Source: Escherichia coli
Lineage (GTDB): Bacteria > Pseudomonadota > Gammaproteobacteria > Enterobacterales > Enterobacteriaceae
Assembly: GCF_024223415.1 (NCBI RefSeq)
Contig: NZ_CP100500.1
DNA: 64,000 bases
Strand: one strand, 5' to 3'
This document shows, in pieces, positions 8,922 to 12,212 of this stretch. The notes under the pieces are model-generated. The model worked only from the letters and a program-made list of their open reading frames with translations, searched no databases and was not told where the DNA came from. The position numbers and the translations under genes were made by a program. How positions within the stretch are numbered: the first letter of the stretch is position 1; each line of letters opens with the position of its first letter.

Positions 8922-9451
8922 TGATCTATCCCCCAACAGGCTAATGCGCTTTCCTGGTCACGACGAATAACCTGTCCATAGCAGTTATTTGAACGGATAC
9001 GGCAGTCACGCCCACCATCCTTTATCCACCAGCGAATCGCCTCGCAGGCGCCTTTTCGATCACCGGCATTAAGCCGCTTATAAAACGTCGACGGGAAACA
9101 CTTACCGGGGCCAATGTTATAGGGACAGAATGACGCAATACCCGCTTTCTGTGGTTCGGTCAGAGGTACTTTAATATTGCGCTCCACCCATGCCAGTGCC
9201 TTATCACGTTCAATAGCGTTAACCTGGTCGCATTTTTCCTTCGACAGCTTCATTCCGGGAAAAACGGGTTTTCCATCCACCATCGTGGCACCCCGACAGA
9301 TGGTCCAGATGCCGGACCCATCGCGGTATGCCGTTGTGTGGTTACCCTCTTTTTCGTCCAGAAACTGATCAAGTATCTGAGGAGCAGATGCGCCAGCACC
9401 AATCAGCGCCAGAACGGCAGCCGACAGGCCGTATCTGATTTTTGCGTTCAT
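8918..9451 (-). CDS. SAR endolysin (T4-lysozyme-like GH24 muramidase with N-terminal signal-anchor-release segment)
   Basis: 177 aa; Gly/Ala-rich N-terminal segment [16 protein letters not shown]; E-x8-D-x5-T catalytic pattern ([16 protein letters not shown]). Confidence 0.88.
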
Positions 9452-9574
9452 GTATATTTATCAGGATCTAAAGGTTTATAACCCTGGATATATCAGGTAT
9501 ATAATCCAGTACCAGCATGTCTCATAAACATACCCGTTCAGGAAAACCAAACGACAACAGATGAGGCTTCAGAA

Positions 9575-9952
9575 ATGAACAGTAAAGAAAATTTGCGCAG
9601 TAGATTTTTGCAACTAATGACAGAAAAAGTTAAATCAGCGCTACTTCCACTTATGGTGGATAATAACGAAGCAACGAGCAGCATCCTTGCAGACCCTTAC
9701 GGTAAACTCTCGCATAAAACGCTGGATATTATTATGAGTGCATTAACACCCCGTATGCTTCAACACCTGAAACAAGATATTAACGCATGGGTGAATGAAG
9801 AATTGAGCCCCCCCTGTTCATGGGACAGACATTATGCATGGCAGCAAAAAATGAGGATTTTCAATTCATTATCACTAAAGTTCAGAGAACCGAAACAGCG
9901 TCCCTTCCCTCTGGAATCAGACAAAAAACAACCTGATCCCACAGGCCCGTAA
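9575..9952 (+). CDS. Hypothetical protein (125 aa), opposite-strand moron between holin and endolysin
   Basis: ATG ORF in visibly AT-rich segment; TATAAT-like hexamer upstream (~9508); no homolog recognised. Confidence 0.5.
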   Translation: MNSKENLRSRFLQLMTEKVKSALLPLMVDNNEATSSILADPYGKLSHKTLDIIMSALTPRMLQHLKQDINAWVNEELSPPCSWDRHYAWQQKMRIFNSLSLKFREPKQRPFPLESDKKQPDPTGP

Positions 9953-10108
9953 TATTTTGAATACCGTGATTATTGATATCACAATGAAAGCTATTCCGCA
10001 CAGTTATGCCCTGCTCCCCACGGGGCATGCCTCATGAAACGTTCCGGGCGTTTCATGTTCCCGGATTTTGTTAAAAGGTATATTATCCCCTCACTCCCGG
10101 GATATTCG

Positions 10109-10381
10109 TCATATTTCTTTTGGTGCCTTTTTCGCAATCTCAGCCACAGCATGTGCCGTAGCCGGAACATTACCGGCATTAGTTCGTTCCAGAATTTCGA
10201 GCAATATGCGGGTTCGTTTTTCCTGCTCCCGTTTGTTAAGGCGATAAGTAAGAACGCCAAGAATGATACTGAACGCCACGCCGATAATAAATCCCCAATC
10301 CTGCAGTGACAGGCTGGCAAAGAACGCAACAAGTCCTGCGCTGCCGTATGCAGCGTTACTGTATCGTTCGTCCATTCTCAT
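10109..10381 (-). CDS. Holin, pinholin-like (two TMDs, first SAR-like), dual-start MRM motif
   Basis: ATG at 10381 and 10375 (MRMDE); AAYGSAGLVAFFASLSL and WGFIIGVAFSIILGVLTY hydrophobic segments; immediately upstream of lysis genes. Confidence 0.75.
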   Translation of the reverse strand: MRMDERYSNAAYGSAGLVAFFASLSLQDWGFIIGVAFSIILGVLTYRLNKREQEKRTRILLEILERTNAGNVPATAHAVAEIAKKAPKEI

Positions 10382-10796: not shown

Positions 10797-10873
10797 TGGA
10801 CCGCCACCGGGGACTCGAACCTCGCACACTCAACTTAAAGGGTTGACGCTCTTTCCTGATGAGCTAGTGGCGG
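10797..10873 (-). tRNA. tRNA, identity uncertain (anticodon loop CCUUUAA reads UUU but has non-canonical C33; Lys- or Arg-like phage tRNA, possibly decayed)
   Basis: 77-nt cloverleaf: acceptor CCGCCAC/GTGGCGG, D-stem GCTC/GAGC, anticodon stem TCAAC/GTTGA, T-loop TTCGAGT, encoded CCA; 1 nt from neighbouring tRNA. Confidence 0.55.
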
Positions 10874-10874
10874 T

Positions 10875-10950
10875 TGGTGGCCCTTGCTGGATTTGAACCA
10901 GCGACCTGGCGATTATGAGTCGCTCGCTCTCACCACTGAGCTAAAGGGCC
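10875..10950 (-). tRNA. tRNA-Ile2-like (anticodon CAU; Met/Ile-lysidine type), phage-borne
   Basis: GGCCCTTTAGCTCAGTGGTGAGAGCGAGCGACTCATAATCGCCAGGTCGCTGGTTCAAATCCAGCAAGGGCCACCA closely resembles E. coli minor tRNA-Ile (CAU); between Q and lysis genes as in Stx-phage ileZ-argN-argO clusters. Confidence 0.8.
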
Positions 10951-11070
10951 GGGCGCAGGATAATAACGTTACGAAATCAATGTTGCAAGCATTCAAAAAT
11001 CACCTGGTTAAAAATCACCCTTAGCTCCTCCACCAGCGCATTCACCATGTCTATCCGAGATAAGTGGCAC

Positions 11071-11100
11071 AAAAAAACCCGCTTGTGGGCGGGTTTTGTT
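11071..11100 (-). terminator. Candidate tR-prime (Q-antiterminated late terminator); hairpin also terminator-like on plus strand
   Basis: Minus-strand CCCGCCCACAAGCGGG hairpin followed by UUUUUUU, ~60 nt downstream of Q stop. Confidence 0.55.
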
Positions 11101-11160
11101 TGCTTTTGCCATCACGTACAAAATCGGCAAAATATCAGATTTGCATGAAATATATGCCTT

Positions 11161-11850
11161 TCAATCTACTTTTGCAACACTTTGCTTTGAAAATGCCGCC
11201 TTTTGTTTTGAACGTGTTCTCATTACAAACAATAAAGCCTCACTATCCAGTCGGTGAAAAATGTGTTTCATTGCAACCCAGTGACGAGTAAATGTTTTGG
11301 ACCAGTTTTTAGTTGTCACTCCCGCCAGTAATGCCAGCTCCTGGTATTCATAACTTTCCCCACCAAAAAGTTCTGCTTTTACTGCCTGCGCCGCCAGCCA
11401 GATTAATTTTTTCAGGCGTTCCTGCGTTTTCCCTGCAATTTTTCTGGTACCTGATTGAGTATTAAATTCATTCCACGCCCACTGTGTTATCGCGATCTGA
11501 TATTCCCAACAAATACTCCCGCTGTAACTCCACAACAACCAGGCTTTATGATGTTCTTCAAGAGACAGAACAGCCCGCCGCCACGATGATGTCGAAAACT
11601 CAACCGGGCTGACCAGGGCAATTGATGAGCCTTTCGCCAGTGATTGTTTTCCCGGGATTGGTGGATTATCCCGCGTTATCATTTTTCCAGTCACTTCATC
11701 GCGGTACCGGATTTTTTTACGCCTGTAACGCCCTGTATCAAACATGGCATTCTCCTGCCAGGCCTCAAGCTGCCCTTTTGTTGATCCACTCAAATCGGCG
11801 GTGGCAATCATGAGTTGCTGACGAACAAACTGTAAATACTGGTTATTCAT
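11161..11850 (-). CDS. Late antiterminator Q (Phage_antitermQ-type, assigned mainly by position)
   Basis: ATG at 11850 overlaps rusA stop (ATGA); sits between rusA and tR-prime/tRNAs/lysis genes; family assignment by context and approximate recall. Confidence 0.6.
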   Translation of the reverse strand: MNNQYLQFVRQQLMIATADLSGSTKGQLEAWQENAMFDTGRYRRKKIRYRDEVTGKMITRDNPPIPGKQSLAKGSSIALVSPVEFSTSSWRRAVLSLEEHHKAWLLWSYSGSICWEYQIAITQWAWNEFNTQSGTRKIAGKTQERLKKLIWLAAQAVKAELFGGESYEYQELALLAGVTTKNWSKTFTRHWVAMKHIFHRLDSEALLFVMRTRSKQKAAFSKQSVAKVD

Positions 11851-12212
11851 GCGCACTCCAGTTCTGTGATTTTTATCCCCAACCGCCCACCAGGAACAAG
11901 CTGACCGCGCACAATATTAATTTCATCAAACTGCTCGTCGTCTATGAGCAGCCCAGCATGCGTCAGTGCATCCAGTGGTGCCTTCAGGATATTGTCCAGG
12001 TCACGACGGCGCTTATCCGGTGGCTCTGCAATAATTTTTATTGCCAGCCTTCCTGACAGGTTTAATTTCAGTCGCTGCTGGCGAACAATAAGCGCCACAT
12101 CACGGCGATAACGCTCACCGGCTTTTGATACAAAATATGTGCTGCCACGACGTCGCCAGTAGGTATTCACCGTCGGCGGGTAAGGCAAAACAAATTCTAT
12201 GCGTTCAGTCAT
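11847..12212 (-). CDS. rusA: Holliday junction resolvase RusA
   Basis: 121 aa; ERIEFVLPYPPTVNTYW...RDLDNILKAPLDAL RusA signature. Confidence 0.85.
   Translation of the reverse strand: MTERIEFVLPYPPTVNTYWRRRGSTYFVSKAGERYRRDVALIVRQQRLKLNLSGRLAIKIIAEPPDKRRRDLDNILKAPLDALTHAGLLIDDEQFDEINIVRGQLVPGGRLGIKITELECA

Follow-up and report, generated by a model that had tools for sequence, protein, structure and literature searches.

An opposite-strand gene of an uncharacterised prophage family between the holin and endolysin genes of a lambda-like Escherichia coli prophage

Morons of the lambda bor and Iss type are expressed in the lysogen, lie on the strand opposite to the late operon and sit beside the lysis cassette. 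Bor and Iss are exported lipoproteins whose genes are located after Rz, and both lysogen expression and a phenotype have been proven for them. Other small proteins act on lysis itself, among them the T4 antiholins RIII and RI and P1 LydB, which are cytoplasmic or periplasmic lysis regulators encoded by genes co-oriented with lysis or early genes. Here we describe a small gene that is likewise found in a lysis region and antisense to the late operon, and compare it with these systems.

The window, by which we mean the whole 64-kb stretch of DNA that was analysed, holds a lambda-like E. coli prophage whose late genes run along the minus strand in the order Q, two tRNAs, holin, a 657-base gap, endolysin, Rz with embedded Rz1, and terminase. 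E. coli GF4 has the same gap (9452-10108) without a single difference and matches the surrounding 10.7 kb at ~97% identity. A sequence-only reading of this DNA had placed a 125-aa plus-strand ORF at 9575-9952, between the holin and the endolysin; the ORF is present in the ORF list as described, and PHROG and Pfam matches confirmed a holin at 10109-10381 and a lysozyme at 8918-9451, both on the minus strand. It is the sole long ORF in the holin-endolysin gap, and no minus-strand frame in the ORF list stays open across its region. The ORF diverges from the endolysin gene, the two start codons lying 123 nt apart, and converges on the holin gene. The features of the region are:

8454-8936, minus strand: Rz i-spanin (Pfam Phage_lysis, E = 6e-31)
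8495-8701, minus strand: Rz1 ORF, embedded in Rz (ORF list)
8918-9451, minus strand: endolysin R, 177 aa, lysozyme-type (Pfam Phage_lysozyme, E = 1.4e-24)
9452-9493, no strand assigned: R-proximal leader, common to phages without the ORF, its end forming the left boundary of the cassette
9494-9886, plus strand: ORF cassette proper, comprising the 5' region and the conserved 104-codon core, defined by homology limits and a GC content of 0.40
9500-9505, plus strand: TATAAT, candidate -10 element 69 nt upstream of the ATG, read from the sequence
9563-9566, plus strand: GAGG, Shine-Dalgarno-like, 8 nt before the ATG, read from the sequence
9575-9952, plus strand: ORF of 125 aa, with the PHROG 1853 core in residues 1-104 and a read-through tail, predicted to be disordered, in residues 105-125
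9808-9814, plus strand: C7 homopolymer in codons S78-C81 of the ORF, prone to frameshifts
9887-10108, no strand assigned: 222-bp spacer from the family stop position to the holin stop, with the tail codons and two hairpins
10005-10057, plus strand: two adjacent stem-loops, at 10005-10029 (9 bp) and 10033-10057 (11 bp), then UUCCCGGAUUUUGUU (folds of both strands)
10109-10381, minus strand: holin, 90 aa, with two hydrophobic segments, converging on the ORF (phrog_1350 'holin', E = 3.1e-29)
11161-11856, minus strand: Q antiterminator, assigned from the gene order along the late operon

The holin is of class II, with Pfam Phage_holin_2_3 and 2_1 matches below cut-off, and the N-terminus of the endolysin is Gly/Ala-rich and hydrophobic, of the signal-anchor-release (SAR) type. 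Three further minus-strand regions of the window were noted in passing. Two tRNA genes lie at 10797-10950, between Q and the holin, one of them Lys-UUU and the second with a CAU anticodon that ARAGORN assigns to Met and PGAP to Ile; in the relative CP033635 the first of the two is annotated as Arg. Just downstream of Q, 11068-11152 gave weak, sub-threshold Rfam matches to isrK/isrJ-like sRNAs and to leader and terminator models, which would agree with the region of the short pR'-tR' transcript in lambdoid phages. Between Rz and terminase lies a 126-aa ORF (7495-7875) that combines a TonB C-terminal domain (Pfam E = 3.8e-13) with a signal resembling that of lipoproteins (LSALAVGC); the same place is taken by bor/iss or ylcI in other relatives, and this ORF is probably another cargo gene.

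The protein encoded at 9575-9952 had been considered to lack any recognisable homolog, which is not the case. It matches PHROG 1853 (E = 4.8e-41), with residues 1-102 aligning to positions 57-158 of the 159 in the profile, and has many relatives annotated as hypothetical proteins. PHROG 1853 is an uncharacterised family of ~104-aa, all-helical proteins, with neither signal peptide nor membrane segment, that no source names, and we found no published study, expression data or phenotype data on the gene in the literature. Among 5426 complete E. coli genomes, the exact window segment is present in 19 and a ~80% DNA-identical version in 673, the homology of the latter covering window positions 9464-9885 only. 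The O157:H7 member carries the older annotation 'unknown protein encoded within prophage CP-933O' (EDL933), whilst distant members at 45-48% identity are gp06 of Stx2-converting phage 86 (YP_794053) and a gene of Stx2a phages; WP_000138558.1 also belongs to the family, and at 37-42% identity a profile search recovered members from Salmonella enterica. When 1.84 billion representatives were searched exhaustively with HMMER, only 12 clusters were returned. By these searches, the family is small and confined to enterobacterial prophages, lambda-like and carried by Escherichia and Salmonella. The ORF is a real small protein gene and, as it is also found in Shiga-toxin and other lambda-like prophages, an ordinary accessory ('moron'-type) one.

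Length alone makes the ORF only modestly unusual: 69 of 5000 dinucleotide-shuffled versions of the segment contain an ORF of at least 125 aa (p ~0.014). Across six lineages at 45-80% identity it retains a length of 104-106 codons, with endings of ...KFR or ...NR, and pairwise dN/dS is 0.15-0.40 where dS is unsaturated. Differences between the window and O157 number 8, 13 and 29 at codon positions 1, 2 and 3, and all 13 residues that are invariant in the family alignment are kept in the window copy. The C-terminus is normal in 84 of 88 loci, the others being frameshifted near the 3' end (n = 3) or starting late (n = 1). The conserved length and the dN/dS values exclude a chance ORF and, on comparative evidence, identify a genuine translated gene under purifying selection. 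A conserved RNA element in place of a gene was also rejected, given the third-position substitutions, and Rfam covariance models gave no match to 9452-10108 at E up to 1.

The window copy differs from the rest of the family at its 3' end. Where the family has a TAA stop codon, the window has GAA at 9887-9889 (AGA TAA in loci L006 and L007, AGA GAA in the window; DNA alignment including O157), and read-through adds 21 codons before a new TAA at 9950-9952. The alignment thereby identifies the window copy as a stop-loss allele, TAA to GAA at 9887. PGAP annotates 9617-9886 as a pseudogene, 'incomplete; missing C-terminus', because the family stop codon is lost and translation runs on. A truncated pseudogene, in which part of the conserved protein is lost, was rejected, since the full 104-residue core aligns and the differences are the lost stop and the tail. 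The identical 125-aa protein occurs on ~470 contigs and a one-residue variant on ~490. At the C7 run, two of the five complete-genome copies that were read back (CP127316 and OY754357) have C6 instead, which cuts the ORF to 92 aa; five of seven copies of this allele read back, the window included, are intact. The same run is the site of the frameshift in database variants P0004 and P0005, and frameshifts in database variants also occur at an A-run near 9847. The C6 alleles could have arisen from slippage or from assembly error. Of the complete E. coli genomes, only the 19 with the full segment contain the sequence beyond the family stop position, 9887-10108, which has no match in the phage collection, and the homology of the holin's relatives begins exactly at 10109.

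An AF2 model of the 125-aa protein (pLDDT 78.7) consists of five helices and a disordered tail, with pLDDT of 82-89 per ten-residue block over core residues 11-100 and ~55 in the tail; the protein is predicted to be a cytoplasmic five-helix bundle. No signal peptide, membrane segment or catalytic motif was found in it, and for this reason its most likely mode of action is binding to some cytoplasmic partner. Pfam and NCBIfam gave no matches, PADLOC defence models gave 0 families at E up to 0.1, a PDB sequence search gave no meaningful match and structure comparison no informative fold match. Homology to 'lysis' entries was likewise absent from Pfam, NCBIfam and PHROG, and the protein resembles none of the known antiholins or lysis regulators.

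The AT-richness attributed to the segment was borne out, GC content being 0.40 over 9494-9886 against 0.52 in R, 0.48 in the holin gene and 0.50 in the whole window. Homology with R-bearing phages that lack the ORF ends at 9491-9493, which sets the cassette at ~9494-9886, and on the right, homology with relatives ends at the family stop codon position. The expression signals proposed for this cassette fared less evenly. The TATAAT-like hexamer upstream of the ORF is an exact TATAAT (9500-9505), but its best -35 is TTTATA at a 19-nt spacer, a poor match, and a consensus promoter scan calls no plus-strand sigma-70 site in the window or in four relatives; the hexamer is kept in the window, O157 and L006 lineages and absent from L007 and Stx2-86. 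GAGG or GAAG stands at the same upstream place in several lineages. Downstream, the proposed hairpin is represented by two stem-loops, yet the consensus scan calls neither 10005-10029 nor 10033-10057 as a plus-strand terminator, the U-tract is broken and the fold energy lies only 1.7 sd below shuffles (z-score -1.7). Among the relatives scanned, a terminator-like site follows the ORF only in L007.

A different upstream element was observed in relatives. Some 55-75 nt ahead of the ATG, the Stx2-86 and Salmonella lineages share a hairpin that is strictly conserved, TCAGCCCGCCAGTG...CACTGGCGTT, the fuller form of which is TCAGCCCG(C/T)CAGTG-loop-CACTGGCGTT (L003 3897-3925, L004, L066, L098 ~3925-3955 and L095/L096). 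It is invariant where the proteins are only 30-50% identical, and hence better conserved than the coding sequence; it is missing from the window, O157 and L006 lineages, the window lineage having TATAAT instead. In Stx2-86 and Salmonella, two unrelated upstream sequences each put a -10-like hexamer ~7 nt before the hairpin, a placement that hints at, and would be compatible with, a transcript starting at the hairpin in these lineages. The hairpin may serve as a stem-loop at the 5' end of the mRNA, as a terminator or as a binding site.

In every informative E. coli locus, the ORF adjoins the same endolysin type on the opposite strand and starts 104-128 nt from the R start. Its other neighbour varies, being either one of three holin types directly, or a single late-strand gene that encodes DUF1327, a phrog_1085 C-terminal domain or both, followed by the holin. 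The gene with the phrog_1085 C-terminal domain, which is often fused behind DUF1327, is referred to below as Y. Across E. coli lineages R is 87-97% identical, compared with 45-78% for the ORF, and R is equally similar in phages without the ORF; there is therefore no sign that the ORF and the endolysin co-evolve, and this possibility was ruled out.

We surveyed the slot beside R in the 74 IMG/VR viral contigs whose R genes come closest to that of the window (at least 95% identity). In 51 of them nothing occupies it and the preceding late gene runs straight into R; the other 23 carry an unrelated antisense ORF there, phrog_2411 (90 aa; n = 21) or phrog_2572 (n = 2). Examples are the 90-aa phrog_2411 ORF at L088 1301-1573 (phage Chlobot CDS0006) and the 86-aa phrog_2572 ORF at L089 3139-3399 (phage PhiR12_1 XSB41614). 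An R-proximal leader of ~45 nt is common to loci with phrog_1853, phrog_2411 or phrog_2572 antisense ORFs. The latter two thus share the slot, orientation and leader of the window ORF and are of similar size (86-90 aa), but have no sequence or profile similarity to it (hhalign probability <1%), and their proteins are acidic whereas, by residue count, that of the window ORF is slightly basic. The premise that holin and endolysin genes (S and R) are normally contiguous is true of Stx1 phage AP005153, one of the 933W-like Stx phages, but does not hold generally, as a filled S-R gap is common in lambdoid phages: in many, the gap is taken by a DUF1327/phrog_1085 gene, by an antisense ORF of one of three unrelated types, or by the two together. 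The contents of the 74 contigs, together with the contiguous S and R of 933W-like phages, show that the slot is a recurrent, optional site for small opposite-strand genes. This fits the structural definition of a moron, and it makes an occupied S-R gap nothing out of the ordinary.

Lysogen-expressed cargo, acting in exclusion, anti-defence or lysis timing, had been proposed from the placement of the ORF. No defence-system, Pfam, NCBIfam or structural match pointed to any of these roles, but the structural part of the proposal stands: the ORF forms a discrete, AT-rich, opposite-strand cassette that is present in some phages and absent from others in which the flanking genes are adjacent, although it is no orphan, as homologs exist. 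Genes that flank the ORF elsewhere adjoin one another without it (S-R in AP005153; Y-R in phage Stx2_95 and in 28 of 77 loci with Y; the empty slot in 51 of 74), and its base composition is distinct. It is also independent of the lysis genes, as indicated by its divergence relative to R and by the three holin types that flank it. We therefore find the moron label reasonable, and regard the ORF with moderate confidence as a moron-like accessory gene of a catalogued, unstudied family. Under this reading, a weak sigma-70 promoter belonging to the cassette (TATAAT, 9500-9505) would drive the ORF whilst the late operon is silent, either in the lysogen or early after infection; once the prophage is induced, Q-dependent late transcription converging on the ORF would silence it. 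Its product would bind another macromolecule in the cytoplasm, not act as a catalyst, and would serve the prophage state, through host modulation or phage-phage conflict, and not form part of the lysis machinery. Against the moron reading stand the scans, which called neither a plus-strand sigma-70 promoter nor a canonical plus-strand terminator, the homology and fold searches, which gave the proposed function no support, the PGAP pseudogene call on the window allele, the frameshifts at C7 in some copies and the missing TATAAT in two lineages; moreover, its constant placement inside lysis cassettes could reflect a lysis-linked role instead.

In such a role, expression of the endolysin or holin would be lowered or postponed by the protein, or by its mRNA, which is complementary along its whole length to the spacer between S and R in the late transcript; the means could be convergent transcription, cleavage of an RNA duplex or binding to a lysis protein, with the effect that lysogens are shielded from leaky late transcription or that lysis time is tuned. 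In keeping with this, all loci examined place the family in the lysis region and antisense to the late operon, close to the R start in E. coli (104-128 nt) and adjoining the holin in Salmonella, and two unrelated antisense ORFs take the same place and orientation behind the same ~45-nt leader. Selection, however, acts on the protein sequence and not merely on the RNA, the ORF does not co-vary with R and is flanked by three different holin types, and it bears no likeness to known antiholins or lysis regulators. In 69% of the loci whose R genes are closest, moreover, the slot holds nothing, so the ORF is dispensable for lysis. We consider a lysis-delaying function unlikely, though less so than the alternatives below.

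A second alternative concerns Y. The phrog_1085 C-terminal domain has no Pfam family, carries the motifs RIGRCMGYLQVAAEIE and DNPPFK..GW..PG..YLKGRI, and was observed alone or fused behind DUF1327, often tail to tail with the ORF family (L098 4338-4895, L095 1710-2264, L006 5424-6092, L004 4327-4968 and L003 4292-5098). K-12 YdfR, a DUF1327 protein whose gene occupies the slot in other prophages and is absent from the window, is reported to bind RNase E and to co-purify with RNA (2026 paper, PMC13232886). The ORF may ancestrally have stood tail to tail with Y as its regulator or antidote, the partner having since been lost in the window. In Salmonella and metagenome relatives, the pair is found upstream of the holin instead of in the S-R gap, with the ORF tail to tail with a Y of 184-185 aa, and in the O157 lineage (L005 5431-5685, E. 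coli O157:H7 FRIK2455) the spacer beside an intact ORF contains a decayed DUF1327 start (MNKQYELVVK, then a stop) and a remnant of the phrog_1085 C-terminal domain (tblastn E = 1.6e-5); it was these two arrangements that suggested a cognate pair. Y also abuts or overlaps the 3' end of the ORF in Stx2-86, LC567842 and L006, and the ORF comes directly after Y in 46 of the 77 informative Y loci. Nevertheless, R follows 40-46 nt after Y with no ORF in 28 of the 77, phage Stx2_95 being a clean example, most loci have the ORF without Y, and linked DNA would give adjacency anyway; the AF2 model of Y (pLDDT 54) is too poor for complex prediction. An obligate, toxin/immunity-like pairing was rejected on the same 28 loci and on the occurrence of the ORF without Y in the window, L007 and O157. 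A remnant of a phrog_1085 gene was also looked for in the window spacer, and none was detectable. We judge the lost-partner explanation to be quite improbable.

The slot upstream of the SAR-endolysin gene might, more ambitiously, be dedicated to antisense genes of at least three unrelated families with one common leader, forming a hitherto undescribed, polymorphic layer that gates lysis or neutralises the DUF1327/phrog_1085 late proteins and of which the ORF would be one allele, a proposition that we regard as more doubtful still. That the window allele is a non-functional pseudogene kept only because the prophage is young is highly improbable: the PGAP call, the lost stop codon, the C6 frameshift alleles and the rarity of the exact segment (19 of 5426 genomes) speak for it, but 104 of 104 core residues align with all invariant positions kept, the extension is modelled as disordered and could leave the fold unharmed, and the 125-aa protein recurs, identical or with one residue changed, on hundreds of contigs, with most copies read back intact.

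Overall, the ORF adds a slightly aberrant new member to a prophage family that is catalogued but unstudied, and is a well-behaved hypothetical gene that holds no surprise. About one complete E. coli genome in eight carries PHROG 1853, O157:H7 among them, as do Stx2 phages, yet nobody has studied the family. If the gene is expressed in lysogens, it would add one more prophage cargo gene to pathogenic and poultry E. coli; if it affects lysis, the timing of phage and Shiga-toxin release could change.

Set against the described systems, the window ORF is closest to its own family, sharing 45-80% identity with other PHROG 1853 members and, with those of E. coli, the antisense orientation and the position at the endolysin start. 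It departs from them in having lost the family stop codon and gained 21 residues, in adjoining a holin of the phrog_1350 type and in having no DUF1327/phrog_1085 gene alongside. T4 RIII and RI and P1 LydB are comparable as small proteins encoded near lysis genes, and like them the ORF product could set lysis timing, but they have no homology to it and its three flanking holin types show no holin specificity. The bor and Iss morons, copies of which are present in relatives' loci, are comparable in arrangement: the ORF too is antisense to late transcription, in the lysis region, variably present and of differing base composition. Unlike Bor and Iss, its protein has no signal peptide and no sequence relation to theirs, the gene is positioned between S and R rather than after Rz, and its expression in the lysogen is at the level of a candidate.
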